The position numbers and the translations under genes are program-made. This document shows, one piece after another, positions 8,957 through 36,649 of a stretch of DNA of 64,000 nt (position 1 is the stretch's first letter; every line of letters starts with the position of its first letter). The notes beneath the pieces are model-generated. The model ran no database searches and had not been told where the DNA came from. It saw nothing but the letters and a program-made list of their open reading frames with translations. Location of the stretch: NCBI GenBank assembly GCA_003212795.1, contig QCOV01000001.1, forward strand, positions 624,893 through 688,892, read 5' to 3'. The stretch comes from OCS116 cluster bacterium AG-435-F03 (GTDB taxonomy: Bacteria; Pseudomonadota; Alphaproteobacteria; MED-G09).

Positions 8957-9013
8957 AATATGTTTCTCCAAATATTAAAAACCGTAAACGGCTATAGTAA
9001 GCTTCGGACTTTA

Positions 9014-9087
9014 TGGAGCGGGTGAAGGGAATCGAACCCTCATCTTCAGCTTGGAAGGCTGTTGCTCTACCATTGAGCTACACCCGC
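9014..9087 (-). tRNA. tRNA-Gly (anticodon TCC)
   Basis: gcgggtg/cacccgc acceptor stem, anticodon loop CTTCCAA, T-loop ttcgatt, encoded CCA. Confidence 0.9.
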
Positions 9088-9115
9088 CTATCCATCCACC
9101 TAGCAGCTCTGCAAC

Positions 9116-9200
9116 TGGTGGAGGGGGTAGGATTTGAACCTACGTAGGCATAGCCAACGGGTTTACAGCCCGTCCCCTTTAACCACTCGGGCACCCCTCC
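9116..9200 (-). tRNA. tRNA-Tyr (anticodon GTA), long variable arm
   Basis: ggagggg/cccctcc acceptor stem, anticodon loop CTGTAAA, long extra arm, T-loop ttcaaat, encoded CCA. Resembles the E. coli tyrU-glyT-tufB arrangement. Confidence 0.9.
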
Positions 9201-9400
9201 TTACAATTGGAGAGCTAACCAATGCTTTAAAATCCAAAGCAGATGTGGTTTATTGAGCTTTCCGTAAGGAAAGTCAATACCCCAAAACAAATAATTAAAT
9301 TAAAACTTATAGTAATTTAAAAAAAAATCCATAAAATATTGATATTTTGCCATTTTTCTAATATTTACAATTTCATATCAGTCTTAAAAAATATTCAAAA

Positions 9401-10162
9401 ATGGTTAGAAAAAAAAACAATAAAAATAAGAATTATACACCCTACTATATATGGGGATTACACGCTTCAATTGCTGCACTAAAAAACAACAAGAGGAATA
9501 TTGTAAATATTTTTTGTACTCAATTAGTTTTTGATAAACATATAAAAGAAAAAGTTAAATTCACTGACTCAATAAAAATAGTTAAAAATAATGATTTAAA
9601 TACACTTTTAGAAGATAAAATCACCCATCAAGGTATTATTATTGAAACAAAAACTTTAAATTATCCGAAATTGGATGATGTAATAGATAGCAGTAACATC
9701 ATAATAGCATTAGACCAAGTAACGGATCCACAAAATGTTGGAGCTATTATTAGAACTTTTAGCTTTTTTGGAGGAGAAAACCTATTAATTACTAAGGATC
9801 ATAGCTCAGAAATTAACGGGTCATTGGCAAAATCAGCTTCGGGAGCTTTAGAATCTGTAAATATAATCAAAGTAACAAATTTATCAATGACATTAAAAAA
9901 AATAAGAAAAAAAGGATTTATAATCATAGGTTTAGATGAAAATAGTAATGTAATGCTTCATAATATTAATGATTATAATAATGAAAAAAAAGTTCTAGTA
10001 ATGGGATCAGAAGGCAAAGGATTGAGAAGATTGACAAAAGAGAATTGTGACTTTTTAGTTTCAATTGCTAATAATAATGATAGTGATTTTAATACATTAA
10101 ATGTTAGTGTAAGTAGCGCTTTAGCGTTATATGAATTCATGGGGAGGGATATTATTAAATAA
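9401..10162 (+). CDS. SpoU/TrmH-family RNA 2'-O-methyltransferase (RlmB-like)
   Basis: 253 aa with SPOUT motifs (LDQVTDPQNVGAIIRT, VLVMGSEGKGL) and an N-terminal substrate-binding domain. Confidence 0.8.
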   Translation: MVRKKNNKNKNYTPYYIWGLHASIAALKNNKRNIVNIFCTQLVFDKHIKEKVKFTDSIKIVKNNDLNTLLEDKITHQGIIIETKTLNYPKLDDVIDSSNIIIALDQVTDPQNVGAIIRTFSFFGGENLLITKDHSSEINGSLAKSASGALESVNIIKVTNLSMTLKKIRKKGFIIIGLDENSNVMLHNINDYNNEKKVLVMGSEGKGLRRLTKENCDFLVSIANNNDSDFNTLNVSVSSALALYEFMGRDIIK

Positions 10163-11892
10163 TGGAACATATAACCTTACCAAATCTATTTTTTCAGAAG
10201 GCATTAGAAAACTCCGACAAGCCATTTTTATGGGCAAAAAAAGAAGGTGAATGGGAAAGTTTATCATGGCAAGAAACTGAAAAAAAGGTAAAACAATTAG
10301 CAGCAGGATTAAAATATAATGGTATTTTACCAGGTGATAAAGTTATTATTGTTTCTGAAAATAGACCTGAATGCCTAATTTCTGATTTAGCAATAAATAC
10401 TTTAAATGCGATAACTGTTCCAGCTTACACAACAAATACTGAAGATGATCATAGATATATAATTGAGCATTCTGATGCAAAAGCTGTAATAGTATCTAAT
10501 AATATTCTTGCTAATAGAATAGCTTTAGCTATAAGCAAAGTTGAATCATGTAACCTCTTAATAACAATCGATGAATATAGCGGTTTCATGCCCGAGAGCT
10601 TGAAAGTTGAAAGCTTTGAAAAATTGCTCAAAATCGGTGATGAAAATCTATCTACTGCCCTTCATAACCTTAACACCATAGATAAAGATGATATCTGTTG
10701 TTTAATTTATACTTCAGGCACAGGCGGTAGACCTAAAGGTGTAATGCTTACTCATAGATCAATTTATCATAATATTTTAGGCGCTGATAATTTAGTTAAA
10801 CAAGTTGGTGATATTGATCATACTTATTTATCACTTGTCCCCTATTCTCATGCTTATGAGCATATGGCAATATTTCTTCAGATCTATTTAGGTGCTCAAA
10901 TTTATTTTTCTGAGGGGCCAGATAAATTTGCTGCGAACCTGTTAGAGGTTGCCCCTACTTTATCAACAGCAGTTCCGAGACTTTTTGAGGTATTATATGA
11001 TAGAATAAGAATTCAAATTAAAAACTCCGGAAAGTTACTTCAATTTGCTTTCAATAGAACAATTAAACTTGGAAAAAAGAATCTATTTAATGAATTAAAT
11101 TTTATCGAAAAAATAGAACATAATACTTATTGTAAATTGATAAGAAATAGAATTACAAAAAGATTAGGAGGACGACTTTCTGCATTTATATCTGGTGGAT
11201 CTGCTCTAAATCCAGATATTGGTTATTTCTTTCTGTCATTAGGTGTTCAAATTATTCAGGGATATGGTCAAACTGAAGCCAGCCCTTTAATAAGTGCAAA
11301 CCCTCCAATAAAAGTTAAAATTGAAACAGTTGGCCCTCCAATAAAAGGAGTTGAGGTAAAATTATCTGAGGAAGGGGAATTGCTTGTAAAAGGTGAAGGA
11401 GTGATGAAAGGATATTGGAAACAGGAAAAAGAGACATCCGAAACAATTATCAATGGATGGCTTCATACTGGTGATTTGGCTGATATTGATGAAGATGGAT
11501 ATATAACTATAAAAGATAGAAAAAAAGAAATAATAGTTAATTCTGGGGGAGATAATATAGCGCCTGTACGTCCAGAAGCCAGCCTAACATTTCAAGACAT
11601 TATTCTACAGGCAATGGTTTCAGGTGATAGAAGACCTTATTTAGTAGCTCTAATTGTTGTAGATCCAGAAGTTTCAAAAAACATAAGTGAAGAAGAATTA
11701 AATAATGAAGTTTCTAATGCTGTAAAAAAGGCAAACGAAAATCTATCGCAAATAGAGAAAATAAAAAAATATATTATAATTGATGAGCCGCTTTCTACAG
11801 ATAATGGAATGTTAACACCAACCATGAAAATTAGACGTCATATGGTTAATGAAATGTATGGAGAACAACTTAACAACTTATATAAGAAATAA
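10162..11892 (+). CDS. AMP-dependent acyl-CoA synthetase/ligase (long-chain fatty-acid-CoA ligase-like)
   Basis: 576 aa with AMP-binding signature YTSGTGGRPKGVMLTH and a C-terminal domain ending TPTMKIRR. Start overlaps the upstream stop (taATGg). Confidence 0.88.
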   Translation: MEHITLPNLFFQKALENSDKPFLWAKKEGEWESLSWQETEKKVKQLAAGLKYNGILPGDKVIIVSENRPECLISDLAINTLNAITVPAYTTNTEDDHRYIIEHSDAKAVIVSNNILANRIALAISKVESCNLLITIDEYSGFMPESLKVESFEKLLKIGDENLSTALHNLNTIDKDDICCLIYTSGTGGRPKGVMLTHRSIYHNILGADNLVKQVGDIDHTYLSLVPYSHAYEHMAIFLQIYLGAQIYFSEGPDKFAANLLEVAPTLSTAVPRLFEVLYDRIRIQIKNSGKLLQFAFNRTIKLGKKNLFNELNFIEKIEHNTYCKLIRNRITKRLGGRLSAFISGGSALNPDIGYFFLSLGVQIIQGYGQTEASPLISANPPIKVKIETVGPPIKGVEVKLSEEGELLVKGEGVMKGYWKQEKETSETIINGWLHTGDLADIDEDGYITIKDRKKEIIVNSGGDNIAPVRPEASLTFQDIILQAMVSGDRRPYLVALIVVDPEVSKNISEEELNNEVSNAVKKANENLSQIEKIKKYIIIDEPLSTDNGMLTPTMKIRRHMVNEMYGEQLNNLYKK

Positions 11893-11960
11893 TTTTATAA
11901 AATTTTCAAATAAATTAAGTAAATGTTGACACCAAAGATTGATTAATTTTTAATTCAATT

Positions 11961-13334
11961 ATGCCACACGACAAAGTAAACGAAGATACAGCTAAATGCC
12001 CTATGTCTTTAGATGAAGTAGATCTATTTGAACCTGGGGCACAAAATTTTTGGTATGACTCATATAAAATTCTTCATAAAGAATCTCCAGTACATAAAAT
12101 TCCAGGTGAAGGGACATCTCCTGATACCGATGGTTTTATATTATCCAAATACGAAGATATTGCTTTTGTTGTAAAAGACATTCTAAGATTTCCTCCTCCT
12201 GTAATGAAAAATACAGACCTTGAGAAAGCTGGCGTTAGCGGTTTTAATGCAGAAAAAGATGATATGGATAAAGAAAAATTACCTGCAAGCAGTGTAGTAA
12301 GTAGACATGATCCAAGTCTCATGAATGCATTTCAAGTTTCAATACAAAGTTTAAGGCCTAATGAAGAATTATGGAAAGCACACAAAAGACAATTAACTGA
12401 TCCTTGGGTAGGGCCTGGGGCCTACAGACATGAAAAAATGGTAACCGAGGCAACAAATAAATTAATAGATAATTGGATAAACAAGGATAAATTTGACTTT
12501 GTATCTGAGTTTGCTATGCCCTTACCTCAAATAGTCATGGCAAACATTATAGGATTCCCACTTGAAGACATTCCGTTTCATAAAAAATGGGGTGACGCTA
12601 TGGTTATGCCTTTTGTTTATGGAAAAGGACACAGAAATCTTTTAACAAAAGATCAATCTGATGAGCAACAAGTGCTTTTAAAAGATTTTGGTAATTATGT
12701 AATTGATCAATTAGAAGAAAAGAAAAAGAATCCCAAAGAAGATATGTTATCTTTCTTGTTAGATGTTACCTATGAACCCTTTGATAGAAAACTTACAGAT
12801 ACGGAAATTATTGGCGTTGCATATGCAATGATAATTGGAGGATTGGAAACAACTCAATATGCAATTGCACATCAGGCTGTTATGTTGATAGATGATCCTG
12901 ATCTATATGTTGATTTAGATAAAAATCGGGAAAAAATAAACGCTTTTGTTGAGGAATCCTTGAGAGTCAAAGCACCTACCCAGGGTCTATCAACGCGAAT
13001 GACAACTCGAGATGAGGTTTTTCAAGGAGTTGAGGTTCCTAAGGGCTCGATACTTCATCTTCGATATGGTGCAGCAAATGTAGATCCTGATACATTTGAG
13101 TGCCCTCATGAAATCAACCTTAATAGAAAAGCCCTAACTAGACACCTAACCTTTTCTCAAGGACATAGAACATGTCCTGGAAATGGAATCTCTAGGCTAG
13201 AACAAAATATAGCGTGGAATTGTCTTATGGATAGAATTGAAAAGTTTGAATATACATCAGAAACAAAAATTGAATACCAACCTGGCATCATGTTAGGTAC
13301 ATTAGAATTACTTTTAAACTTTTCAAAGAAATAG
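11961..13334 (+). CDS. cytochrome P450
   Basis: 457 aa with the heme-thiolate loop FSQGHRTCPGNGISRLE (FxxGxRxCxG) and an ESLR-type K-helix. Confidence 0.9.
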   Translation: MPHDKVNEDTAKCPMSLDEVDLFEPGAQNFWYDSYKILHKESPVHKIPGEGTSPDTDGFILSKYEDIAFVVKDILRFPPPVMKNTDLEKAGVSGFNAEKDDMDKEKLPASSVVSRHDPSLMNAFQVSIQSLRPNEELWKAHKRQLTDPWVGPGAYRHEKMVTEATNKLIDNWINKDKFDFVSEFAMPLPQIVMANIIGFPLEDIPFHKKWGDAMVMPFVYGKGHRNLLTKDQSDEQQVLLKDFGNYVIDQLEEKKKNPKEDMLSFLLDVTYEPFDRKLTDTEIIGVAYAMIIGGLETTQYAIAHQAVMLIDDPDLYVDLDKNREKINAFVEESLRVKAPTQGLSTRMTTRDEVFQGVEVPKGSILHLRYGAANVDPDTFECPHEINLNRKALTRHLTFSQGHRTCPGNGISRLEQNIAWNCLMDRIEKFEYTSETKIEYQPGIMLGTLELLLNFSKK

Positions 13335-13404
13335 TTTTCTAATGAATGTTTAAGTTTACCTTTATAAGTGATTAGTGTATTTAAAATTTATTTTAAACCT
13401 GAAT

Positions 13405-13480
13405 GCCGACTTAGCTCAACTGGTAGAGCACCTGATTTGTAATCAGGGGGTTGGGGGTTCAAGTCCCTCAGTCGGCACCA
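13405..13480 (+). tRNA. tRNA-Thr (anticodon TGT)
   Basis: gccgact/agtcggc acceptor stem, anticodon loop TTTGTAA, T-loop ttcaagt, encoded CCA. Confidence 0.9.
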
Positions 13481-13722
13481 TTCATATAATAAGATGTTTA
13501 TTTTAATTGTATTAGTTTCTTTTTTAGTTTTTTATTTTATCTTTAGTTATCTCTATAAACTCCTTAATAAAAAACAAAATAAGTCAAACACCTTAGAAGC
13601 CATTGTTTTTTATTTATTCTTTTTTAGGTTAATTTCTGTTGCATTGATGGTAGGTTTTGTTCTTTATTGGATTGCTGGTGTATTTTAGTAATTGGTGAAA
13701 ATAAAATTAATGTAAAATAATT

Positions 13723-14661
13723 ATGAAAACATTTAAAAATAAAGTTGCTTTAATTACTGGTGCTGCATCTGGAATGGGAAGATATCTTGCGATTAATCTA
13801 GCAAAAGAAGGTGCTGATGTTGTTATTTGTGACGTGGATGAGTCTGGTTTAAAGGAGACAGAAACATTAATTAAAGCTTACAATGTAGGCTCTAGCTCTT
13901 TATTGCTGGATGTGAGAGATAAAAAAGAAGTTGAAGAACTTCCTACAAAAATAATAGAAAATCATGGAAAAATAGATTTAGTCTTTAACAATGCAGGAGT
14001 TGTCATACCTACTGGATTCCTAAATATGAATGAAGAGGACTGGAATTGGTGTAATGATATTAATTACAATAGCATAATAAACTTCTCTAGATCATTTTTA
14101 CCTCACCTTATGAAAGAAGAAAAAACAGCGTTAATAAATACCTCATCTATTTTTGGAATAATAACCACACCTAACAATACTGTTTATCATGCATCTAAAT
14201 TTGCAGTTAGGGGTTTCACAGAAAGCTTGGCCAAAGAAATGGAGGGCTCTAATACACAAATCCATTGTGTTTACCCTGGTCATATAGGAACAAATATAGC
14301 AGTGAACGCAAAATTTGGTGATCAGGTCGTAAAAGGTGAAAGCAAAGAAGGTATATTAGGTCTTAATGGAGAACCAGTAAAAGACATAAAAGGAAATCAA
14401 GTCTCAGAAAAAGAGGCCGGAATTAGGTTTCGAGATGCTGGAATGGATCCTGATAAAGCTGCACAGATAATTCTTAAAGGTATCAAAAAAAATAAGAAAA
14501 GAATTTTTGTTGGAATTGACGCAAAGTTAATGGAAATATCTCAGAGAATATTTCCTGATAGTTACTGGAGAATGATGCCTATTACACTTTTATTTGGCCT
14601 ACTCCTATCGCCACATAGACTAAAAAAGGCATTTCAATTGACTAGAAAGAAAAAAGATTAA
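13723..14661 (+). CDS. short-chain dehydrogenase/reductase (SDR)
   Basis: 312 aa with Rossmann motif TGAASGMGR, NNAG, YHASK catalytic pair and a long C-terminal tail. Confidence 0.85.
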   Translation: MKTFKNKVALITGAASGMGRYLAINLAKEGADVVICDVDESGLKETETLIKAYNVGSSSLLLDVRDKKEVEELPTKIIENHGKIDLVFNNAGVVIPTGFLNMNEEDWNWCNDINYNSIINFSRSFLPHLMKEEKTALINTSSIFGIITTPNNTVYHASKFAVRGFTESLAKEMEGSNTQIHCVYPGHIGTNIAVNAKFGDQVVKGESKEGILGLNGEPVKDIKGNQVSEKEAGIRFRDAGMDPDKAAQIILKGIKKNKKRIFVGIDAKLMEISQRIFPDSYWRMMPITLLFGLLLSPHRLKKAFQLTRKKKD

Positions 14662-15644
14662 GCGTTAGCGTAGCTTTTTAATCGTTGATTAATTATTTCA
14701 TCAGCTTCTTGCATGATTGTATCAATCAGCTCTTTGCATGTTGGTACATCATGAATTAAACCAGCAACCATTCCACAGCTCCAAGCAGCAGCCTCAAGAT
14801 CACCATCTCTTAATACTCTCTCCGAACCAGCTACCAGAGGTCTAATTTCCTCAAGTAAAGCATTAGGGTCATTATTATCTTTATGATTAGCTTCAATTTC
14901 CATAATTTCATCAACTGCTTTGTTAACAAGAACTCTTTCTGTATTTCTCAGAGGCCTCATAACTAATCGTGTCTCTAGCTCGGATGCCTCAACTAAACGT
15001 TGTTTTACATTATCATGAACAGGTGCCTCTTTAGTGGCAATAAATCTTGTGCCCATATTCATTCCTTCAGCCCCAAAAGCTAGAGCTGAAACAAGACTTC
15101 TTGCGTTAGCCATTCCACCAGATGCAACAAAAGGTATTTTTAATTCTTCAGCTGCTCTTGGCAGAAGGATGCCATTAGGCACATCATCTTCACCAGGGTG
15201 TCCACCGCATTCAAAACCATCCACGCTAACAGCATCACATCCTATAGCTTCAGCTTTCAATGAATGTCTTACGGAAGTACATTTATGAATTACTTTAATA
15301 TCTGCTTCCTTTAGTTGGGGCATATATTTTTCAGGATTACGTCCTGCTGTTTCAACTATTTTAATTCCACCTTGAATAATTGCATCTATATACTCATCAT
15401 AAGGAGGGTCTTTAAATGACGGAATAAATGTAAGATTTACTCCAAATGGTTTATCGGTCATATCGTGACATTTTGCTATTTCATTCGCTAAATCTTTTGG
15501 AGTTGGTTGGGTTAGTGCAGTAATAATTCCTAGTCCCCCAGCATTAGAAACTGCAGCAACTAACTCTGAAAATCCTACAAAATGCATACCACCCTGAATA
15601 ATTGGATGCTCAATATTAAATAGTTCTGTAATTCTGGTTTTCAT
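14658..15644 (-). CDS. nitronate monooxygenase (NMO)/FabK-like FMN-dependent oxidoreductase
   Basis: 328 aa TIM-barrel FMN protein with the NMO-family N-terminus (ITELFNIEHPIIQGGMHFVGFSELVAAVSNAGGLGII). Confidence 0.8.
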   Translation of the reverse strand: MKTRITELFNIEHPIIQGGMHFVGFSELVAAVSNAGGLGIITALTQPTPKDLANEIAKCHDMTDKPFGVNLTFIPSFKDPPYDEYIDAIIQGGIKIVETAGRNPEKYMPQLKEADIKVIHKCTSVRHSLKAEAIGCDAVSVDGFECGGHPGEDDVPNGILLPRAAEELKIPFVASGGMANARSLVSALAFGAEGMNMGTRFIATKEAPVHDNVKQRLVEASELETRLVMRPLRNTERVLVNKAVDEIMEIEANHKDNNDPNALLEEIRPLVAGSERVLRDGDLEAAAWSCGMVAGLIHDVPTCKELIDTIMQEADEIINQRLKSYANA

Positions 15645-15659
15645 TTTGTCCTCACAATA

Positions 15660-16856
15660 TTAGAATAATGACGGTAGTTTACTATCTTCAGTATTTATAA
15701 TTTTATCTACCCATTTGTGGAAAACTTGGCCACCACCCTCATTCCTACCAAACATAACATGGTCAATTAGACCTGTTTTTAAGCTTTTTTGTAATCTAAG
15801 ACCTGTTCCATAGTCTTCAGTTTCAACAACATATTTTAGAAGATCAAATTGTTTATGAGCTTCTTCAGCTTGTTTTTCATTCGGTTCTTTTTCCATTAAA
15901 TAAAATTGATTTGTTACTGATTCTTCAGGTCTATCTCCAGGCAATAACTGTGAAAGCATTATGCTACGCCCACCTCCATTAAAAGAAGCTATTGAAACAT
16001 GAGGAAAAATTGTCCAAACACCAGCCATTAAAACATCCAAGGGCCATTCTTCTACAGAATTTTCATAATGATCTTTTCCGTCATTATTAAAATCATTTTG
16101 TTCAGGCAGTCTATAGGGCGATATAGCTCTTTGATGGGGACCCCATTCATAGTAATTAGCTTGATTTGAGAAACTATCTCCAAAAGTATCTTTATGTAAA
16201 ACAGGGAGATGGTAAAGGTCTAAATAACCATCATATGCTACCTTCCAATTTGGACCATTCACTGATCTAGTTTCAAAAACATGCCAATTTTCTAGTCCAA
16301 AAAGAGATAACATTTTATCATATCCAGAAAGGTAGTCTTGAATATTTAAATTTGATTTAGGATCTAATGTAACCCAAATAATTCCTTCTTTCTCAAGTGA
16401 TGGTAAGGAAATCAATCCATTGCATGATTTATCTATTTCTCCAAATTCATGGGCAGATGCAACGCCCATAAGAGCGCCTTCATCATTATATGTCCAACCA
16501 TGATAAGGGCAAGAAAAGCGTTTCTGATTTCCTGTTCCCGGCTCAACTAAAGCAGCACCTCTATGTCGACATGCATTAAGAAATGCAGAAATTTTACCTT
16601 TTTTATTTCTTAAAATAATTACAGGTACACCAACAACTTCCATGGCCTTATAATCTCCAGGATTTGGAATTTCACTTGTCACGGAAAGAACTAGAGGTAA
16701 TCTTTTGAAAATTAGATCAACTTCTTTTTTCCATCTTACTGGATCATAATAATTCTCTGCTGGAATCTTAACTACATCATCAACAAGAGTCATCGTGCCT
16801 TTTTCAGCATGATCTTTGTTAATTCGGGCCATTTCAAATAATTTTTCTTTACTCAT
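15660..16856 (-). CDS. Rieske [2Fe-2S] non-heme iron oxygenase, alpha-subunit-only type (KshA/GbcA-like)
   Basis: 398 aa with Rieske motif CRHRG...CPYHGW and mononuclear iron motif NWKVAYDGYLDLYHLPVLH. No beta subunit gene follows. Confidence 0.88.
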   Translation of the reverse strand: MSKEKLFEMARINKDHAEKGTMTLVDDVVKIPAENYYDPVRWKKEVDLIFKRLPLVLSVTSEIPNPGDYKAMEVVGVPVIILRNKKGKISAFLNACRHRGAALVEPGTGNQKRFSCPYHGWTYNDEGALMGVASAHEFGEIDKSCNGLISLPSLEKEGIIWVTLDPKSNLNIQDYLSGYDKMLSLFGLENWHVFETRSVNGPNWKVAYDGYLDLYHLPVLHKDTFGDSFSNQANYYEWGPHQRAISPYRLPEQNDFNNDGKDHYENSVEEWPLDVLMAGVWTIFPHVSIASFNGGGRSIMLSQLLPGDRPEESVTNQFYLMEKEPNEKQAEEAHKQFDLLKYVVETEDYGTGLRLQKSLKTGLIDHVMFGRNEGGGQVFHKWVDKIINTEDSKLPSLF

Positions 16857-16904
16857 AATATGCTTTTAACAAAATTAAACTAAAAATTCAAAAAATATAA
16901 AAAT

Positions 16905-17684
16905 TTAAGCTCTTTTTATTGTTAAACCTCCATCAACTGGTAAAACAGCACCATTTATAAAGGAAGATGAAGGTAGACAGAAATTTAAAGTTGCATGAGC
17001 AACTTCCTCGGGCTCTCCATATCTTTTTAAGGGAACTCTCCTTTTTGCATAAACCTCTTTATCTTTTTCAGGAATTTTTTCAGTCATTCCTGTTCTTATA
17101 GGGCCTGGGCATATACAATTAATTGTAATTCCACTTGAACCTAATTCAACTGCTAAAGATTTTGTTAAACCGATAACACCATGTTTCGCTGAAGTATATG
17201 GTGATTGTCTTGGGGTTGCGCCCAATCCTTCAGTAGATGAAATATTTACAATTCGACCTGATTCCGATTTCTTAATATAAGGCAAAACTTCTCTAATCAA
17301 TTGGACTTGGGCTTTTAATAAAACATTAAATGTATTATCCCAATATTCCTCATAATTATCATCACTTATTGTTGTAGGAATTGAAATTCCAGCATTATTA
17401 ATAAGAATATCAATACCCCCAAACCTTTTGACTACCTCATTTACGGTAGATTTGATTTCATCAGAATTAGTTACATCAAGTTTAATCCCAAAACATTTTT
17501 TTCCATGACTTAAAATATCTTTAACAACTTCATTTATTTTATCTTGACTTAGATCAGTTACAATAACTTGAGCTCCTTCTTCTGAAAAAAGTTTAGCTGT
17601 AGCAAGGCCCATACCACTCGTTGCTCCAGTTATAATAGCTATCTTATTTTCAATAGATCTAGAAAGTTCAGTCAATTTATTCAT
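16905..17684 (-). CDS. SDR family oxidoreductase
   Basis: 259 aa with ITGATSGMG, NNAG and YTSAKHGV. Confidence 0.88.
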   Translation of the reverse strand: MNKLTELSRSIENKIAIITGATSGMGLATAKLFSEEGAQVIVTDLSQDKINEVVKDILSHGKKCFGIKLDVTNSDEIKSTVNEVVKRFGGIDILINNAGISIPTTISDDNYEEYWDNTFNVLLKAQVQLIREVLPYIKKSESGRIVNISSTEGLGATPRQSPYTSAKHGVIGLTKSLAVELGSSGITINCICPGPIRTGMTEKIPEKDKEVYAKRRVPLKRYGEPEEVAHATLNFCLPSSSFINGAVLPVDGGLTIKRA

Positions 17685-17773
17685 TTATCGCCAATTTTAT
17701 CTAATAATTTTAACATTATAAACATAAGACCTATAGCAACAACTAGTCCTAAAAACGCCATAAAAAAACCCAT
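17682..17773 (-). CDS. candidate 30-aa hydrophobic micro-protein (MGFFMAFLGLVVAIGLMFIMLKLLDKIGDK)
   Basis: Fills the gap between the Fe-ADH stop and the SDR start. AAGGAT SD sits 6 nt upstream of its ATG, and its stop overlaps the SDR start (gatAAATGA). A single predicted TM helix. Short AT-rich ORFs are easily spurious. Confidence 0.3.
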
Positions 17774-17776
17774 AAT

Positions 17777-18919
17777 CTATCCTTTCTCAGCAAAATCAAG
17801 TATTTGATAAACATCATCAGCTTTAGTTATTGGCTTAGGATTTGATAAAACTATCTGATGCTCGAGCGCATATTCAACTATCTTATCATATAATTCACTA
17901 CCAATACCAACATCTGCAAGTTTTGATGGCAAACCTAAATCAACGATTAATTCTTTTACAGCTTCATGTGCTTTTAAATTAGGCCTTCCTAGGGCTGATG
18001 CAATCATTTTATCTTTTTCTGGATGATGATCTTCATTCCATTTTAATACTGCAGGTAACATTACACATGAGGTTTGACCATGAGGAACAGAACCAAGAGA
18101 ACCAAGAAGATAACCTATTCCGTGACTTGCACCCATCATTACATTCCCCATATTTTTTGCAACAATCCATACTGCTTTTTGTGACTGTGAGCGTGCCTCA
18201 ATATTATTTAAATCCTTTTTTGTTTTTCGAAGTGAATTTGAAAATATTCTTAGAGCTTCTATAGCATTATGGGAAATCATTGGATTTTTAGAAATTGAAC
18301 AAAAGCCTTCAACGGCATGATCAACAGATCTAATAGCCGTAGACAACCATAACCATTCTGGAGTATGGGCAGAAATATGTGGGTCGAGAATTACAACTTT
18401 AGGACATATATCAGAACCAAAATAACCTTGTTTAAGTTTTTTTTTAGTATCCATAGCCCCTCCAACTACAGAGTACTCTCCTCCAGATAGTGTAGTTGGA
18501 ACAGCAATCTGTCTAATATTTGATGTAATATTTTGCATATTACCAGATATTTTTTTTAATTCTTCTGCACTATCAATGTCTAAAGTAATGCATAGCTGAA
18601 CAACTTTTACAGTATCTATAGGGGTTCCACCTCCAATCGTTAATATAATATCTGGATTAGCTTTTTTTACTTCTTTTGCGCATTCAAGAACATTTTCAAT
18701 TGGAGAATGCTCTTTACATCGATCAAATATCCCTACCAATTTACTTCCAAGAATATCTTTGATTTTTTCAATTTCTTTTGTCTTTTTTGATAAGGTTGAT
18801 GATGCGACAATAAAAATTTTATTAATATTCATACTCTCTATTTCTAGAGGAATTATTTCTTCCAATTTATGATCACAGTAAACTCTCTCAAGAGGAGAAT
18901 ATGAAAAGGACTGAATCAT
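17777..18919 (-). CDS. iron-containing alcohol dehydrogenase family (maleylacetate reductase-like)
   Basis: 380 aa with the Fe-ADH NAD-binding motif GGGTPIDTVK and metal-binding His residues. Confidence 0.85.
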   Translation of the reverse strand: MIQSFSYSPLERVYCDHKLEEIIPLEIESMNINKIFIVASSTLSKKTKEIEKIKDILGSKLVGIFDRCKEHSPIENVLECAKEVKKANPDIILTIGGGTPIDTVKVVQLCITLDIDSAEELKKISGNMQNITSNIRQIAVPTTLSGGEYSVVGGAMDTKKKLKQGYFGSDICPKVVILDPHISAHTPEWLWLSTAIRSVDHAVEGFCSISKNPMISHNAIEALRIFSNSLRKTKKDLNNIEARSQSQKAVWIVAKNMGNVMMGASHGIGYLLGSLGSVPHGQTSCVMLPAVLKWNEDHHPEKDKMIASALGRPNLKAHEAVKELIVDLGLPSKLADVGIGSELYDKIVEYALEHQIVLSNPKPITKADDVYQILDFAEKG

Positions 18920-19840
18920 TTATTTGTCAGATATAAAATCGGCTATTGCATCAAGTGCTTCATTAGCTTCAGGTAAAAAAGGTGCATAACCATGAAAAAC
19001 ATGCACCATATCATCCCAAACTTCTAACTTAACGTCACAACCAGATGACTCTGCGCTTTCAGCAACTTTTTTTGAATCATCTAATAAAACTTCTCTTCCC
19101 CCTACTTGGATAAGCAAGGGTGGAAAGCCTTCATAATTACCATAGACAGGTGATGCATATGGATTTATTAGATCAGATTCATCTTTGATATAAAGATCCC
19201 GAAATGCTGCTATTGCATCCTTTGAAATATATGGATCAATATCTGCATTAGTATCATAAGTTTCAGAAACAGGATCTAATTCTGCCCATGGAGATAAAGG
19301 TATTACAGCATTTGGAAGCTCAGAGTTATCATCCTTCAAAGCCAATGTAACCCCTAAGGATAAGCCTCCACCAGCCGAATCTCCGGATATATAAGATTTA
19401 GTACATTTTCCACTACCATTTGGTCCATTATTTAACATCCACAAAAAAGCTTTTTTAGAGTCATTTACTCCATGAGGAAATTTTAATTCTGGTGCTAGTG
19501 AATAATCTATTAAAAGTATAGAACATCCAGTTTTTTCGGCAATTTGGCTAGTAAGAGAGAGGTAACCTCTTATAGTTCCAATTGCATAACCACCACCATG
19601 TAAATATAAAATTCTTTTATCAGGATCTGAGTTCTCAGCCATAACCCATTGACCATAAATACCATCAACATTAACTGGAGAAGCGCTGCCAGTAGGCCTA
19701 ATACTACTATCAGCATTAAAATAATCATCAACAGTATATCTAAAGTGCTTCATCCCAAGTCTTTCATCATCTAATGAAAAGAAAGTTTTAACCAATTCTT
19801 CCTGATGTTTAATAACTAATTTATTTTGCTCTGAACTCAT
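18920..19840 (-). CDS. alpha/beta-hydrolase esterase/lipase, hormone-sensitive-lipase (HSL) family
   Basis: 306 aa with oxyanion-hole motif HGGGY and nucleophile elbow GDSAGG; Asp/His of the triad lie near the C-terminus. Confidence 0.88.
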   Translation of the reverse strand: MSSEQNKLVIKHQEELVKTFFSLDDERLGMKHFRYTVDDYFNADSSIRPTGSASPVNVDGIYGQWVMAENSDPDKRILYLHGGGYAIGTIRGYLSLTSQIAEKTGCSILLIDYSLAPELKFPHGVNDSKKAFLWMLNNGPNGSGKCTKSYISGDSAGGGLSLGVTLALKDDNSELPNAVIPLSPWAELDPVSETYDTNADIDPYISKDAIAAFRDLYIKDESDLINPYASPVYGNYEGFPPLLIQVGGREVLLDDSKKVAESAESSGCDVKLEVWDDMVHVFHGYAPFLPEANEALDAIADFISDK

Positions 19841-19856
19841 TTAAGCCCCCTTTAAT

Positions 19857-20588
19857 TTATAAACTCATACCACCATCTGATGTGATCATTTGTCCAGTTA
19901 TATAACTAGCTCCATCACTACATAAAAAACATGCGAGCTCTCCCATATCTTCAGGAGTACCCCATCTTCCTAATGGTATTCTTTTAAGTGAGTCATCATA
20001 TCTTTTCTTATTTTTAAAAGTAACCTCAGTTAATTTAGTTGCAACAAATCCTGGAGCGATACCGTTAACTCTTATATTGTTTTCAGCCCAGGCCTCTGCA
20101 AGGGTTTTAATCAAAGTGAGTAATCCACCCTTTGATGCAGAATATGCTGGATTACCTTTTACAGAATGATAGCTAGCTCCAGATCCAATAATTATTATTG
20201 ACCCATTACTTTTAGATAATTTATCTTGAAAAAAAGAACATGAGGCCATTATAGAATTTAAATTTAAATCAACCACTTTCTTAAATGTATCCATTTCAAA
20301 TTCTTTTCTTTTATATGCTACGATACCTTGAGAACAAATTAAGTGATCTAAGTCATTAAACGGTAAATCTAAATTATTTAGATTATCATGATTAGAAAGA
20401 TCCAGTTTTTGATAATTACACTTTTCTATATTTTGAGAAATTCTTTCTTCATAATCTTCAATTGAGTCTCTTGTACCTGTAATACAAACATTCGCATTAT
20501 ATTTGATAAAGCTTTCAGCAATTCCTCTTCCAATTCCACTACTGCCACCTATAACTAAGATGTTTTTATTATCAAAACCTTGAGACAT
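19857..20588 (-). CDS. SDR family oxidoreductase
   Basis: 243 aa with VIGGSSGIGRG and YSASKGG. Confidence 0.85.
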   Translation of the reverse strand: MSQGFDNKNILVIGGSSGIGRGIAESFIKYNANVCITGTRDSIEDYEERISQNIEKCNYQKLDLSNHDNLNNLDLPFNDLDHLICSQGIVAYKRKEFEMDTFKKVVDLNLNSIMASCSFFQDKLSKSNGSIIIIGSGASYHSVKGNPAYSASKGGLLTLIKTLAEAWAENNIRVNGIAPGFVATKLTEVTFKNKKRYDDSLKRIPLGRWGTPEDMGELACFLCSDGASYITGQMITSDGGMSL

Positions 20589-21367
20589 TATGCTGAGTAA
20601 CCACCATCAACAGGGATAGATTGACCGCTTATATAACCAGCATTTTCTGATGCGAGAAAAACTACAGTATCAAATAACTCTTCTGGAGCGCCTGCTCTTC
20701 CAAGCGGGACTTGCTGCATCCATTGATCCAATATTCCACCAGGTGGAGAATCGATTTCTTGAGATAACCCTACAGCAATTAATCCAACAGCAACGCAATT
20801 TGCCCTTATGCCGTTATGACCTTCCTCTCTTGAAATTGCTGTACATAAATGTTGAACACCAGACTTAGGAACAGAAGATAAACCATCTGTGCTTATATAT
20901 TTATGAATAGCGGCTGTAGTTAACGCCGTAATTGATCCTCCTCCTCCTTCTTTTAAGACAGGAACAACAGATCTTAAAACATGATAAAATCCCTTAATAT
21001 CAGTATCTAAAGTTTTATAAACATCTTCTGGATTAGCATCCAATATAGGCATTATGTGAAGAAAAGGACCTGTAGCAAAAACTACAGAATGAATTCTACC
21101 AAATTCTTTCTGACTAGATTTAACGAAGCTTTCAACTTTTGATGCGTCCAAAAGATCTACACTAGACGAAAATCCTTTTTGACCATTTTCCTCAATTTTT
21201 GAAATATTTTCTTTTGCAGCTTCCTCATTATTTAAATATGTAAAAGCTACATCAGTTCCACATTTACTAAGAAGATCAACAATTCCGGAACCTAATCCAC
21301 CTGAACCACCGAATACAATAGCTGCACCATCAGAAAATCTATATTTTGTCATACCCAATTCCTCCAT
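20588..21367 (-). CDS. SDR family oxidoreductase
   Basis: 259 aa with VFGGSGGLGSG. One-nt overlap with the downstream SDR. Confidence 0.8.
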   Translation of the reverse strand: MEELGMTKYRFSDGAAIVFGGSGGLGSGIVDLLSKCGTDVAFTYLNNEEAAKENISKIEENGQKGFSSSVDLLDASKVESFVKSSQKEFGRIHSVVFATGPFLHIMPILDANPEDVYKTLDTDIKGFYHVLRSVVPVLKEGGGGSITALTTAAIHKYISTDGLSSVPKSGVQHLCTAISREEGHNGIRANCVAVGLIAVGLSQEIDSPPGGILDQWMQQVPLGRAGAPEELFDTVVFLASENAGYISGQSIPVDGGYSA

Positions 21368-21519
21368 AATTTATCAAAGCATATTAAACAAAAGCTTAAA
21401 AGATTTATTTAGTATAAATTTGCATAATAATAATTATAAAAAAAACTTTTATAAAACTTTCAATATTGCAAGAAATATTATGCATGCTATTCTGTTTTTG
21501 GTTTTAATGAGGCTTTTAA

Positions 21520-23127
21520 ATGACAAATAAAATTGATTGCGATGCTATTGTTGTTGGCGCTGGTTTTGCTGGACTAGCTTTAATTCATCACTTAAAAAAA
21601 ACAGGTATTTCTGTAAAAGTATTAGATAAAGCTTCTGAAATAGGAGGAACATGGGCATGGAATCGTTATCCAGGAGCAGCTACAGACAGTGAAGGATATT
21701 ACTATTGTTTGACCTTTTCCAAAGAAATTTTGCAAGAATGGACCTGGTCAGAGAGATATCCTGGTTGGGAAGAAACTAATAGATATCTTAATTTTGTAGC
21801 TGATAAATGTGATATGTGGCCTCATATTCAACTTGATACCGAAGTTATAAGTGCAGAATTCAATAAAGAGGATGGTTTATGGATTGTAAAGACCAAAAAT
21901 GATGAAGAGCTAGTTTGTAAATATTTTATAAGTGCTATGGGAATGATCTCTCAACCAGTTATTCCTAGTTTTGATGGAATAGAAAATTTTAATGGCCCAT
22001 GCTTTCATTCCTCAAGGTGGCCTCAAGAAGGTCTAGATTATGATGGAAAGAAAGTGGCTATTGTTGGGTGTGGTGCATCCACAGTACAAATGTTACCAAT
22101 AATGGCTCAGACAGCAGAAAATGTAACAGTTTTTCAGAGAACACCGAATTTTGTTCTACCCGCTATGCAGAAATCAATGACACCTGAATGGGAAAAAGAT
22201 ATCAAAGATAATTATGATGAAATAATCGATAAATGCAGGAACCATGTTTTTGGTATGGCTTTTGATAGCCCTGTAGGTCGTAATGCAGTTGATACGCCTG
22301 AAGACGAGAGAGAGAAAATATTTGAAGACAATTGGAATGGAAGTTTTAGATGGGTTTTTGAAACTTTTGATGATTTGTTAGTAGACCCTGCGGCAAATCA
22401 AATGGCGGCAGATTTTATTATAAAAAAAATGAAAGAAAAAATTAATGATCCTGAAATTGCAGAAATATTAACACCGAAAGGTTATCCTCTATTCGCCAAA
22501 AGACCACCATTAGATCATGGTTTTTATGAGGCATTTAATAGAGAGAATGTCCATCTTGTAGATATCAAAGACAGAGAGCCAATTTCAAAATTTACTGAAA
22601 AAGGAATTAATACAATAAAAAATGAATATGAATTTGATATCATAATTTTAGCTACAGGCTTTCAAGCGTATACAGGGGCTCTTGAAGCTTTTGATATTAT
22701 AGGTCAAAGCGGAAAATCTATTAGAGAAAAATGGGAGCTTGAGTCAAAATCAATTATGGGAGTATGTATTTCTGATTTCCCAAATTTATTTACAATAACA
22801 GGACCTCAAGCACCTTTTGCTAATCTTCCAACCTCTATAGAGCAAAATTGTTTATGGATTTCTGATTGCATAAATAAAATGGAAAAAGAAGGACACAAAA
22901 TTTGTCATCCTCTTTTAGAAGCAGAAGAAGAATGGTCAGCTCACGTTAAAGAAGTGCATGAACAAACTTTGATGAATGTTGGTGACAAAGTAAATTCTTG
23001 GATGATGGGAGCAAATATAGAAAATAGAAAATCCAGAGTATTAATTTATTTTGGAGGTGCTGGAGTATATTATGACAGATTAAGAGAGTCGGTTGATAAT
23101 GATTTTCCAGAACTGACATTTAGTTAA
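21520..23127 (+). CDS. Baeyer-Villiger monooxygenase (type I flavin monooxygenase, cyclohexanone-monooxygenase-like)
   Basis: 535 aa with FAD Rossmann motif VVGAGFAGL, the BVMO fingerprint FNGPCFHSSRWP (FxGxxxHxxxWP) and the NADPH Rossmann motif VGCGASTVQ. Confidence 0.9.
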   Translation: MTNKIDCDAIVVGAGFAGLALIHHLKKTGISVKVLDKASEIGGTWAWNRYPGAATDSEGYYYCLTFSKEILQEWTWSERYPGWEETNRYLNFVADKCDMWPHIQLDTEVISAEFNKEDGLWIVKTKNDEELVCKYFISAMGMISQPVIPSFDGIENFNGPCFHSSRWPQEGLDYDGKKVAIVGCGASTVQMLPIMAQTAENVTVFQRTPNFVLPAMQKSMTPEWEKDIKDNYDEIIDKCRNHVFGMAFDSPVGRNAVDTPEDEREKIFEDNWNGSFRWVFETFDDLLVDPAANQMAADFIIKKMKEKINDPEIAEILTPKGYPLFAKRPPLDHGFYEAFNRENVHLVDIKDREPISKFTEKGINTIKNEYEFDIIILATGFQAYTGALEAFDIIGQSGKSIREKWELESKSIMGVCISDFPNLFTITGPQAPFANLPTSIEQNCLWISDCINKMEKEGHKICHPLLEAEEEWSAHVKEVHEQTLMNVGDKVNSWMMGANIENRKSRVLIYFGGAGVYYDRLRESVDNDFPELTFS

Positions 23128-23134
23128 TTATATA

Positions 23135-24163
23135 TTAATTAACTATCAAATTATTGGAAAAATTTTCATATGCCAGTATTAATGCTGCTTTAATTCCTGA
23201 CGCATCTTTAATTTTTTTATTGGCCTCTTCTGAGGCGGCGTTTCCTGCTTTTACTCTATTCTCTATTCCTTTAAGTATGCAGTAAAGTTTTGTTAACGAA
23301 AATAAACAATAAATATTAAGAAGCTCAATATTAACCATTTTTCCAAACGATTCTTCATAAGATTTAAGAAATTCTGAAGCTGATGGAAGGTCGTATGAAC
23401 TCCACTCCTCACCGATTCCATATAAAACTCCCTTAGGTATTAACCAATTAATCATTTGAAAACTGAGATCAACCTCTGGTTCACCAAAGGCAGATAACTC
23501 CCAATCTAACACGGCTAAACAATTTGAGTCGTCTCCTATAACTAAATTATCTAATTTATAATCCCCATGAATTAAGCATAAGTTGTTATTTTCAGGAGTA
23601 TTTTTGATAATAAAATCATAAATTCTTGAAATGTCTTTATCATGATTATCATCATTAAAAATTTGGCTATACCAGATATTCAAATTTCTTATCATAAAAC
23701 CAGTGTTTTTCTTAAAAGGTATATCTAATTTATCGATATTGTAACTATGTAATCTACCAAGAGTTTTTGCTAAACTTTTGTAAATTTTTCTTCTTTCTTG
23801 AGAATTGTTATTTGGAAGAAAGGGATCTTCATAAATATGACCATCAATATATTGCATGATATAAAAATCTCTACCTATTATTGATTTATCTTCACAAAGT
23901 ATTAGAGGTTTTGGAACGCTAAATTCATTTTTACTAAGACCGGATAACACATGAAATTCTCTATCTAATCTGTGAGCACCTCTAACAAGTTCTCCCTTTG
24001 GTTGAGTTCTTAAAATAAATTTATCACCATTTTCATCTAATAAAATATAAGTTGGATTAGATTGACCATTACCTATTTTTTTAGGTAATTGATTTAATAA
24101 ATTGAATTGATGTTTTTTCAAAAAACCGTCAATTTTTTGGAATTCTTCTTCATCGATAAGCAT
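23135..24163 (-). CDS. phosphotransferase-family kinase (APH/choline-kinase-like fold)
   Basis: 342 aa with catalytic loop HGDYKLDNLV and DWE. The N-terminal nucleotide-binding lobe resembles the APH-like proteins associated with acyl-CoA dehydrogenases. Confidence 0.75.
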   Translation of the reverse strand: MLIDEEEFQKIDGFLKKHQFNLLNQLPKKIGNGQSNPTYILLDENGDKFILRTQPKGELVRGAHRLDREFHVLSGLSKNEFSVPKPLILCEDKSIIGRDFYIMQYIDGHIYEDPFLPNNNSQERRKIYKSLAKTLGRLHSYNIDKLDIPFKKNTGFMIRNLNIWYSQIFNDDNHDKDISRIYDFIIKNTPENNNLCLIHGDYKLDNLVIGDDSNCLAVLDWELSAFGEPEVDLSFQMINWLIPKGVLYGIGEEWSSYDLPSASEFLKSYEESFGKMVNIELLNIYCLFSLTKLYCILKGIENRVKAGNAASEEANKKIKDASGIKAALILAYENFSNNLIVN

Positions 24164-24165
24164 AA

Positions 24166-24618
24166 TTAAGAGTTAAGTGATTTTTTATATTGTTCCTCAA
24201 TATTATCAAAAATTAAACTATATAAAGACTCTAGAAGCTCAACTATTTCAGCTTCTGTGGCACCATCAGCAACAAAATGACTGCACCAAGTAATATCTGT
24301 TTCATTTGATGTGATTTCTCTAAGATTTACGCAAGCAACATAATTCAACATAGGTAAACATGATTTATCCACTATAGAGTAAGTCAAAGATAACCCCTCC
24401 TCATAGCCATCAAGCCTTTCAATAACCTCACCAGGATAAGGGTCCCCTAAATAGACCGCTCTTACATCTCCAATGCTATCAGAGAAAGTATCTGGTAATT
24501 TTACTTCAAGAATATTTTCAGGAAGTAAGGTTTTTATCTCTCCAAAGGCTCTTAGTCTGTCCCAAAAATATTGTTTAGGAACATTAACAATTCTCTGAAC
24601 TTTAGCTTCATTTGGCAT
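24166..24618 (-). CDS. conserved hypothetical ~150-aa protein, paralog A (possibly SRPBCC/Bet v1-like ligand-binding fold)
   Basis: About 45% identical by eye to the 26980-27429 product; shared blocks KRIV.VPK.YFW.RLRAF, GEVIERLDG, IDKSCLP. The fold assignment is a guess. Confidence 0.6.
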   Translation of the reverse strand: MPNEAKVQRIVNVPKQYFWDRLRAFGEIKTLLPENILEVKLPDTFSDSIGDVRAVYLGDPYPGEVIERLDGYEEGLSLTYSIVDKSCLPMLNYVACVNLREITSNETDITWCSHFVADGATEAEIVELLESLYSLIFDNIEEQYKKSLNS

Positions 24619-24648
24619 GGGTTTCTCCTAAACTAATGCTAGTTATTA

Positions 24649-26877: not shown

Positions 26878-26979
26878 AATTACCCCCCCAATTGATTTAA
26901 ATATTATGATAGTTGAATAAATGTTTTTTTTCAATAAATTAACAAATTAATGATTTAAATTTTAAGTTAATTAAATATC

Positions 26980-27429: not shown

Positions 27430-27434
27430 TAAAT

Positions 27435-27911: not shown

Positions 27912-27915
27912 TAAA

Positions 27916-34940: not shown

Positions 34941-35026
34941 TTATTCACCTAAATAGATAAAAACCAAAGATAAAACTTTAGTAATTTAGGTATGAATTAT
35001 CAAGAGGAAGTGATATTTAAAAAAAT

Positions 35027-35794: not shown

Positions 35795-35795
35795 T

Positions 35796-36587: not shown

Positions 36588-36649
36588 AATATAATGCTAT
36601 AGCATAGTTCAAAATATTTAATCATTTATTTTTATTATGATGAGGAGAG

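Follow-up and report, generated by a model that had tools for sequence, protein, structure and literature searches.

The described gene clusters for the breakdown of cycloalkanols and cycloalkanes include the chn clusters of Acinetobacter and Rhodococcus, the cpn cluster of Comamonas and the cyclohexane cluster of Acidovorax CHX100 with its CYP153-type P450, and the mekAB and acmAB pairs combine a Baeyer-Villiger monooxygenase (BVMO) with an esterase in the subterminal degradation of alkanes and methyl ketones. Here we analyse a related locus in PS1/OCS116 bacteria, which are common and mostly uncultured alphaproteobacteria of the surface ocean. It lies in a stretch of 64,000 nucleotides (the window) from contig QCOV01000001.1 of OCS116 cluster bacterium AG-435-F03, and it contains a BVMO gene and, divergent from it, an operon that includes an esterase gene. 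The succession of P450, alcohol dehydrogenase (ADH), BVMO, lactonase, ADH and aldehyde dehydrogenase is established cycloalkane chemistry, and CYP153 enzymes hydroxylate cyclohexane besides alkanes, CYP153A6 being among the P450s that do so (PMC7542165). A marine proteomic precedent comes from Thalassolituus, in which a BVMO and an esterase are up-regulated on n-C28 (PMC6304351), and CYP153 genes related to those of Parvibaculum are known from marine metagenomes (PMC4021335). For SAR202 bacteria a hypothetical scheme for the oxidation of alicyclic dissolved organic matter has been proposed on genomic grounds (Landry et al. 2017, PMC5395668). Our literature search found no paper that links PS1/OCS116 bacteria or the present BVMO group to such a pathway, and searches on PS1 together with BVMO, alkane or P450, on a BVMO of Chol11 and on BVMOs of Halieaceae returned nothing specific.

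We identified in the window a conserved, putatively catabolic island of about 21-24 kb, running from about position 13488 to 34940-37864 (Table 1), in marine alphaproteobacteria of the PS1/OCS116 clade. On balance, we favour the explanation that this island serves the oxidation of hydrophobic aliphatic or alicyclic compounds. The species-representative genomes were scanned with an alignment of BVMO orthologs, which returned 80 loci; 344 matching stretches were found in these genomes. Members of the BVMO ortholog group, 67-97% identical, occur in PS1/OCS116, Halieaceae, other Pseudomonadales and metagenome-assembled genomes (MAGs) labelled Myxococcota and Novosphingobium. The nearest loci, with BVMOs 90-97% identical to ours, come from genomes of single cells and from MAGs that bear the labels PS1 clade, 'Rhodobiaceae' or OCS116 cluster, and share the G+C content of the window (about 33%). 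We searched all fetched loci with 26 window proteins by tblastn and drew the PS1/OCS116 synteny from 16 loci. The block from the short-chain dehydrogenase/reductase (SDR) gene at 13723 to the P450 gene at 33774-34940 is syntenic across the lineage, and in OCS116 loci synteny extends as far as the CoA-transferase gene at 36650-37864; the remaining window genes outside the island are housekeeping genes. The first-pass annotation of this DNA had instead read positions 10162-23127 as one unit encoding the complete logic of alkane/ketone oxidation by a Baeyer-Villiger route. All the genes that it named were recovered at the positions given, by open reading frame (ORF) listing and Pfam scans, and all its motifs in the translations, and its identification and pairing of the BVMO and the esterase held up; the limits of the unit and the roles given to the P450, the acyl-CoA synthetase, the nitronate monooxygenase (NMO)-family protein and the iron-type alcohol dehydrogenase (Fe-ADH) did not. 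The unit was wrongly drawn because the left breakpoint lies at a tRNA-Thr gene and synteny continues rightward past 23127, so that two synteny blocks had been joined while the conserved island extends far to the right.

Like the chn, cpn and CHX100 clusters, the island brings together a P450, an SDR, a type I BVMO, an alpha/beta-hydrolase as putative lactonase, a second ADH for the hydroxy-acid and a candidate for aldehyde oxidation. It differs from them in that its BVMO is not demonstrably closer to the solved CHMOs than to PAMO or STMO (all 400-440 bits), in having a molybdopterin large subunit only and no NAD-dependent aldehyde dehydrogenase, and in lacking an AraC/NtrC regulator, a ferredoxin and a reductase. 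Additional to that set are its genes for a Rieske oxygenase, the PA1024-like flavoprotein, the TonB receptor, the SRPBCC proteins and GlpK, and its host is an uncultured oligotroph. The BVMO and esterase of Thalassolituus oleivorans (TOL_0709 and TOL_0906) are a marine counterpart that leads from ketone to ester to alcohol and acid, and they have proteomic evidence, whereas the PS1 island is known from genes alone. Their locus tags are distant, whereas the PS1 genes are neighbours, and the Thalassolituus BVMO is related to EthA-type homologs (PMC6304351), whereas the PS1 enzyme is of the CHMO/PAMO/STMO type. The SAR202 scheme, also for an abundant marine oligotroph, has the same elements of priming by P450 and SDR, BVMO, lactone, esterase or lactonase, ADH, aldehyde oxidation and family III CoA-transferases; SAR202 relies on expanded luciferase-like (type II) monooxygenases with scattered paralogs, whereas PS1 has just one BVMO, of type I, encoded in an island that is compact and syntenic. 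Clusters of BVMO, hydrolase and dehydrogenase genes are already textbook material and the island is a new example of a known cluster type, which leaves general understanding of BVMO pathways unchanged; the more interesting residue is a BVMO group of high conservation that is shared across bacterial classes and frequently has a related TonB receptor for a neighbour.

The gene at 21520-23127 is, by its fingerprints and homology, a genuine type I BVMO. The fingerprint FxGxxxHxxxW[P/D] is present as FNGPCFHSSRWP at residues 157-168, and the second motif [A/G]GxWxxxx[F/Y]P[G/M]xxxD as GGTWAWNRYPGAATD at residues 42-56. Among 26 orthologs F157, G159, H163, W167 and P168 are invariant, as are the second fingerprint and R328, which aligns with the active-site R337 of PAMO. 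The Rossmann motifs are GAGFAG (13-18) and GCGAST (183-188). Over its full length the protein scores 433-441 bits against engineered and wild-type PAMO, 431 against TmCHMO of Thermocrispum and 407 each against STMO and Rhodococcus CHMO, 359 bits against OTEMO and at most 76 bits against FMOs, which sets it apart from N-hydroxylating and other flavin monooxygenases, as the first-pass annotation had proposed. By bit scores to solved structures its placement as PAMO-, CHMO- or STMO-like could not be separated. Hundreds of metagenomic sequences belong to the 90%-identity clusters of this BVMO (729 and 809 members in two clusters).

The partner enzyme proposed earlier, an HSL-family esterase, was likewise upheld. 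The protein matches the family IV enzymes EstD11 (228 bits) and E40 (212 bits) with aligned catalytic residues, HGGG lies at residues 80-83 and GDSAGG at 152-157, and the Asp and His of the triad fall in LLDDS and VHVFH when aligned to EstD11; it thus belongs to family IV and is not a peptidase-type hydrolase. No signal peptide was found on it. The sole hint of lactone hydrolysis is the automatic JGI name of a 73% identical homolog, 'monoterpene epsilon-lactone hydrolase'. One homolog stands in an arrangement of SDR, esterase and luciferase-like monooxygenase, and close to another (locus L084) is an FMO-like flavoprotein of 434 aa whose class is uncertain.

A further oxygenase of the island, which lies outside 10162-23127 and had been missed, is a CYP153-family P450. 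It scores 610 bits against 7ant and 596 bits against CYP153A7 (3rwl) and carries the I-helix and haem-binding signatures LLIVGGNDTTRN (VGGNDTT) and FGFGIHRC.

Seven minus-strand genes (14658-21367) form the operon, with spacings of -1 to 92 nt; from 14658 to 21367 they encode the NMO-family flavoprotein, the Rieske alpha subunit, an SDR, the Fe-ADH, the Abhydrolase_3 esterase and two more SDRs. The BVMO and esterase genes stand 1.7 kb from each other with a divergent intergenic region between them, and in this region an alignment of six PS1 loci shows two conserved blocks, each occurring once in the window: TTATCAAAGCATATTAA at 21371-21387, and CTTTCAATATTGCAAGA at 21457-21473, which contains the palindrome CAATATTG. 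All-against-all ORF clustering of 83 loci placed the esterase, the Fe-ADH and both adjacent SDRs with the BVMO in 13 of the 13 PS1-type loci that have that side (window included); the four PS1-type loci without these genes end less than 2 kb from the BVMO on that side. The PS1/OCS116 loci that cover the operon (L001, L003, L004, L009, L012, L015, L017 and L024) all have it intact, at a distance of 0.15-3 kb from the BVMO. The operon's gene order is kept at protein identities down to 60-75%, and therefore reflects more than chance co-location, even where the APH, SRPBCC, TonB-receptor and extra Rieske genes have moved (L009, L012, L015 and L017). The two genes thus adjoin and their pairing is conserved among relatives, as in BVMO-hydrolase clusters, which we take as good evidence, from gene order, of a functional linkage of the BVMO with the esterase and its operon within the PS1/OCS116 lineage.

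On the observed family memberships, motifs, operon spacing and synteny we infer substrates, an order of steps and a coupling between operons, which together make up the reading that we prefer and regard, on balance, as probable: a Baeyer-Villiger/ester-hydrolysis module inside a larger island for the oxidation of hydrophobic aliphatic or alicyclic compounds. In the lineage of the window the substrate would enter through the TonB receptor. It would be hydroxylated at a C-H bond, most plausibly by the CYP153 enzyme and perhaps by the alpha-only Rieske oxygenase, and the resulting secondary alcohol would be oxidised to a ketone by one of the four SDRs. The BVMO would convert the ketone to an ester or lactone, and the cytoplasmic HSL-type hydrolase would cleave it. 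The Fe-ADH, which had been proposed as a ketone-forming enzyme, has as its best families 4-hydroxybutyrate dehydrogenase and lactaldehyde reductase and as its best solved matches MAR1 and maleylacetate reductases (at most 130 bits); judged by these relatives, it is better suited to oxidising the freed primary alcohol or omega-hydroxy acid. The start codon of its gene directly abuts the esterase stop codon, so that the two genes are probably translationally coupled and a succession of lactone, hydroxy-acid and oxo-acid is suggested. The molybdopterin enzyme would possibly then oxidise the aldehyde to the acid, which a CoA-transferase or CoA ligase would pass into beta-oxidation. Since terminal hydroxylation of n-alkanes by CYP153 yields no ketone, and since the abutting esterase and Fe-ADH genes suggest the succession just named, we lean weakly towards alicyclic, terpenoid or branched ketones that give lactones, over plain n-alkanes.

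Several observations weigh against this scheme. CYP153 enzymes are mainly terminal n-alkane hydroxylases, a route that bypasses a BVMO. Their operons are usually of the three-component type, with ferredoxin and ferredoxin reductase genes adjacent; here a flavin reductase gene adjoins instead, and no ferredoxin, ferredoxin reductase or transcription regulator was found among the scanned window ORFs of at least 90 aa. To call the pathway complete was therefore an overstatement, as regards both the electron supply of the P450s and the Rieske protein and regulation; the conserved putative promoter blocks notwithstanding, the island holds no regulator gene. The homologs of the esterase at 57%, 45% and 41% identity have no clear full-length type I BVMO beside them, and in the 61 loci of other taxa, where the BVMO is 67-81% identical, linkage to the esterase was seen in none. 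GlpK and the class II aldolase-like gene do not fit the proposed steps. The SDRs and the Fe-ADH gave no substrate-specific match: searches of the PDB with the two BVMO-side SDRs and the Fe-ADH returned generic relatives only (gluconate 5-dehydrogenase, FabG and maleylacetate reductases), and NCBIfam named none of the synthetase, SDRs, Fe-ADH, Rieske protein, esterase and BVMO at equivalog level, its cutoffs being passed only for GlpK and for the subfamily of the class II aldolase-like protein. Scans of positions 9000-28000 for promoter and terminator consensus sequences gave fewer matches than shuffled controls and are therefore uninformative on transcription units.

The 61 loci of other taxa belong to Halieaceae, other Pseudomonadales and MAGs labelled Novosphingobium or Myxococcota, and none of the seven operon genes is present in them. 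Their BVMO has as neighbours SDRs (38 loci), an acyl-CoA dehydrogenase (30), a luciferase-like monooxygenase (29), an Abhydrolase_1 hydrolase (28), an AMP-dependent (CoA) ligase (26), an APH-like protein (26) and TetR regulators (25), and in 24 loci it adjoins a TonB receptor 42-46% identical to that of the window. The logic of Baeyer-Villiger oxidation and hydrolysis thus appears, from gene content, to recur there with a non-orthologous hydrolase, CoA ligase and SDRs. In a neighbour-joining tree without support values the PS1/OCS116 BVMOs form one clade nested among gammaproteobacterial sequences, and two gammaproteobacterial loci (L008 and L010; 44% G+C, Halieaceae-type context) fall inside this clade with a BVMO 81% identical to ours. 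Because of this nesting and of these two loci, lateral transfer of the BVMO between bacterial classes is suggested, for which the tree is only indicative.

These findings bear on the alternative that the island is a co-located toolbox of independent oxidoreductases accreted in a small genome, in which the esterase would be a general lipid or acylglycerol esterase and the BVMO would act on a substrate imported through the TonB receptor, its product being hydrolysed spontaneously or by another enzyme. The company that the BVMO keeps in other taxa, where it accompanies the TonB receptor and not this esterase, speaks for it, as do the nesting of the PS1 BVMO in gammaproteobacteria, which suggests acquisition apart from the seven-gene operon, the varied contexts of esterase and Rieske homologs elsewhere and the presence of GlpK inside the island. 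We nevertheless consider it unlikely, given that BVMO and operon have stayed adjacent in all 13 PS1-type loci despite divergence and rearrangements and share a conserved divergent promoter region. A wider proposal, that this uncharacterised BVMO group moves between classes with a dedicated TonB receptor and marks a widespread marine pathway for one abundant imported phytoplankton ketone or its precursor, is attractive but speculative, and we would not expect it to prove correct. Candidates would be isoprenoid, apocarotenoid or alicyclic compounds, and PS1 would have plugged the BVMO module into its own island of CYP153, Rieske protein and esterase.

The first-pass view of positions 10162-23127 as a self-contained subterminal n-alkane or methyl-ketone pathway, with the P450 at 11961-13334 (P450a), SDRs, Fe-ADH, BVMO, esterase, synthetase and Rieske and NMO-family proteins, appears still more doubtful. 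The named genes all exist, BVMO and esterase are genuine, and the subterminal route is established with a marine precedent (PMC6304351). The synthetase and P450a genes, however, lie beyond the tRNA gene at the synteny breakpoint and are missing from most sister loci. Among the fetched loci the synthetase gene is present only in L001 and P450a is syntenic only there (76% identity), whereas the genes at the corresponding junctions of L003 and L004 are unrelated to either; for these reasons we exclude both from the island. The ATG of the synthetase gene and the stop codon of the upstream gene, which encodes a SpoU-type rRNA methylase, overlap, so that the two genes would be translationally coupled, and the synthetase is FadD11-like, below the curated cutoff. 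P450a is generic: its best bit scores are to BioI (132), PksS and CYP106 (118-132 for the three), and its similarity to CYP153 structures is low (84 bits to CYP153A7), so that it is no CYP153 member and would not be the pathway hydroxylase that it had been taken for. The NMO-family protein is PA1024-like, and the Fe-ADH is an unlikely ketone former.

Improbable, and the least favoured of the explanations considered, is that the BVMO acts on a CoA-activated keto-acid, as does OTEMO of camphor degradation, with ligases or CoA-transferases working before oxygen insertion: OTEMO is a clear homolog (359 bits), in 26-30 of the 61 non-PS1 loci the BVMO has for neighbours an acyl-CoA dehydrogenase, an APH-like protein and an AMP-dependent ligase, and a family III CoA-transferase occurs in the PS1 island and another directly beside a Rieske ortholog elsewhere, but the OTEMO match is weaker than those to PAMO, CHMO and STMO, the PS1 island has no acyl-CoA dehydrogenase, and the idea is purely contextual. 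A steroid substrate was also considered, prompted by BVMO orthologs in Novosphingobium sp. Chol11 and HTCC2143, and was rejected for the window: the Rieske protein scores 35 bits against KshA, and the P450 at 27916-29175 about 600 bits against CYP153 and at most 260 against CYP125/CYP142.

With its CYP153, type I BVMO and esterase, and in some lineages a TonB receptor, the island offers PS1/OCS116 bacteria a testable ecological role, which would be the turnover of hydrocarbons, lipids or alicyclic dissolved organic matter. The compact gene set suits heterologous testing, and a BVMO roughly equidistant from PAMO, CHMO and STMO is of interest to enzymology.

Table 1. Features of the putative catabolic island and its left flank in the window (positions count from the first nucleotide of the window).
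Feature	Position	Strand	Basis or remark
Long-chain-type acyl-CoA synthetase, flanking gene	10162-11892	+	AMP-binding and AMP-binding_C_3 (Pfam)
Generic cytochrome P450 (P450a), flanking gene	11961-13334	+	Pfam; best solved relatives BioI, PksS, CYP106
tRNA-Thr(TGT)	13405-13480	+	Left island boundary; ARAGORN and Rfam
64-aa hydrophobic small ORF upstream of first SDR	13496-13690	+	Identical peptide encoded in L003
SDR, 312 aa, convergent with the seven-gene operon	13723-14661	+	Pfam adh_short
PA1024-type FMN flavoprotein, predicted NADH:quinone reductase, last operon gene	14658-15644	-	NMO family
Alpha-only Rieske non-haem-iron oxygenase	15660-16856	-	Pfam Rieske and Ring_hydroxyl_A
SDR, 259 aa	16905-17684	-	Pfam; no specific equivalog reached
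Divergent Fe-ADH	17777-18919	-	Fe-ADH and ADH_Fe_C domains
Family IV (HSL) carboxylesterase or possible lactone hydrolase, cytoplasmic	18920-19840	-	Abhydrolase_3 (Pfam)
SDR, 243 aa	19857-20588	-	Pfam, NCBIfam, PDB search
SDR, 259 aa, first operon gene	20588-21367	-	Pfam, NCBIfam, PDB search
Divergent intergenic region	21368-21519		Two conserved blocks, alignment of six PS1 loci
Type I BVMO	21520-23127	+	FMO-like/Pyr_redox_3 (Pfam), fingerprints, homology
APH-family phosphotransferase-like protein	23135-24163	-	Pfam
SRPBCC (START-like) small protein, no signal peptide	24166-24618	-	Pfam
TonB-dependent outer-membrane receptor	24649-26934	-	Plug and beta-barrel; signal peptide, C-terminal Phe
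Second SRPBCC paralog, no Pfam hit	26980-27429	-	About 50% identical to first (tblastn cross-hits); same cluster
Flavin reductase, HpaC/StyB/FerA type	27435-27911	-	Pfam, NCBIfam
CYP153-family P450 (alkane/alicyclic hydroxylase family)	27916-29175	-	Structure matches and signatures
Molybdopterin oxidoreductase large subunit	29168-31480	-	8-nt overlap with CYP153 gene
Class II aldolase/adducin-superfamily protein	31493-32248	-	PRK07044 subfamily 371 bits, above cutoff
Glycerol kinase GlpK	32296-33771	-	TIGR01311 620 bits, cutoff 590
Third P450 (P450c), family unassigned	33774-34940	-	Pfam, NCBIfam
Family III CoA-transferase, probable right island end	36650-37864	+	Syntenic in OCS116 loci

The Rieske and NMO-family genes had been thought to extend the pathway with further oxygenation steps. 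They do share the minus-strand operon, but the NMO-family protein would add no oxygenation, because its best match is the quinone reductase PA1024 (2gjl/6e2a; 369 bits over the full length), and it is farther from the validated NMO PA4202 (4q4k; 79 bits in two fragments), so that we do not place it among the class I nitronate monooxygenases. As summarised in a preprint, PA1024 of Pseudomonas aeruginosa was found experimentally to be an NADH:quinone reductase with no nitronate activity. The same activity is predicted for the PS1 protein, which differs from PA1024 in that its partner gene directly upstream in the operon encodes the Rieske oxygenase. In every PS1/OCS116 locus covering both, the PA1024-type gene lies 15 nt downstream of the Rieske gene. 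It is a possibility that the flavoprotein donates electrons to the Rieske protein, which would be unprecedented.

The alignment of the Rieske protein shows both the Rieske and the mononuclear-iron motifs (CRH...CPYH and DLYHLPVLH), and its best solved matches, at 86-95 bits, are the alpha subunits of phthalate and naphthalene dioxygenases and CntA. It is an alpha-only oxygenase with an SDR and the PA1024-like gene as neighbours; no beta subunit was found among the neighbouring genes and no cognate reductase among the scanned window ORFs. Orthologs elsewhere, at 56-59% identity, adjoin family III CoA-transferases, luciferase-like monooxygenases, class II aldolases, an Abhydrolase_3 esterase and FMO-like proteins, and from these contexts the families associated with the Rieske protein and the esterase seem to be a shared marine toolkit and not one fixed pathway. 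In OCS116-type loci a further Rieske paralog, 44-46% identical to that of the window, is encoded directly upstream of the BVMO gene (L009 8621-9811; L015 8563-9753).

At the left edge of the island, the DNA of the window and that of L003 become homologous about 8 nt past the 3' end of the tRNA-Thr gene, the only other finds of the Rfam scan being four more tRNAs. The next 240 nt or so, which include the 64-aa ORF, are nearly perfectly matched and the adjoining SDR gene is 94% identical at the DNA level, which suggests recent recombination or unusually strong constraint at this edge; across PS1/OCS116 loci the SDR itself is 54-96% identical. The stretches concerned are window positions 13405-13730 and L003 positions 1860-2218; in L003 the tRNA is absent and unrelated secreted-protein genes lie to the left of the breakpoint. 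At the other end, the CoA-transferase is 74-75% identical in L009 and L012.

In the right part of the island, the molybdopterin subunit resembles the alpha subunit of glyceraldehyde dehydrogenase (579 bits, below cutoff), and no small or medium subunits were found among the scanned window ORFs. GlpK is kept in PS1 loci, between the class II aldolase-like gene and the P450. In L017 a 413-aa ORF (16312-17553), by eye a luciferase-like monooxygenase, stands between the CYP153 and molybdoenzyme genes, and a gap of about 1.3 kb in L011 (7457-8764) is probably the same insertion. Such a monooxygenase would be the natural partner of the adjoining flavin reductase, which in the lineage of the window, where this ORF is missing, is therefore apparently orphaned.

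The APH-family proteins that adjoin the BVMO in non-PS1 loci are only about 25% identical to that of the window. A conserved and apparently undescribed BVMO cluster of Halieaceae type was seen in L002/L030, L010, L020-L022, L075 and about 25 further loci, and is shared by Halieaceae, other Pseudomonadales and Novosphingobium sp. Chol11. It comprises an acyl-CoA dehydrogenase, the BVMO, an SDR, an APH-like protein, an AMP ligase and TetR regulators, together with an Abhydrolase_1 hydrolase, a luciferase-like monooxygenase, SnoaL_4 proteins and a TonB receptor. In PS1 the small SRPBCC proteins without signal peptides stand on either side of the TonB receptor (24166-27429), and the related receptor of Seongchinamella (Halieaceae) has small SnoaL_4 (NTF2-like) proteins on both sides (L002 12686-16097), a parallel architecture built from non-homologous ligand-binding folds.

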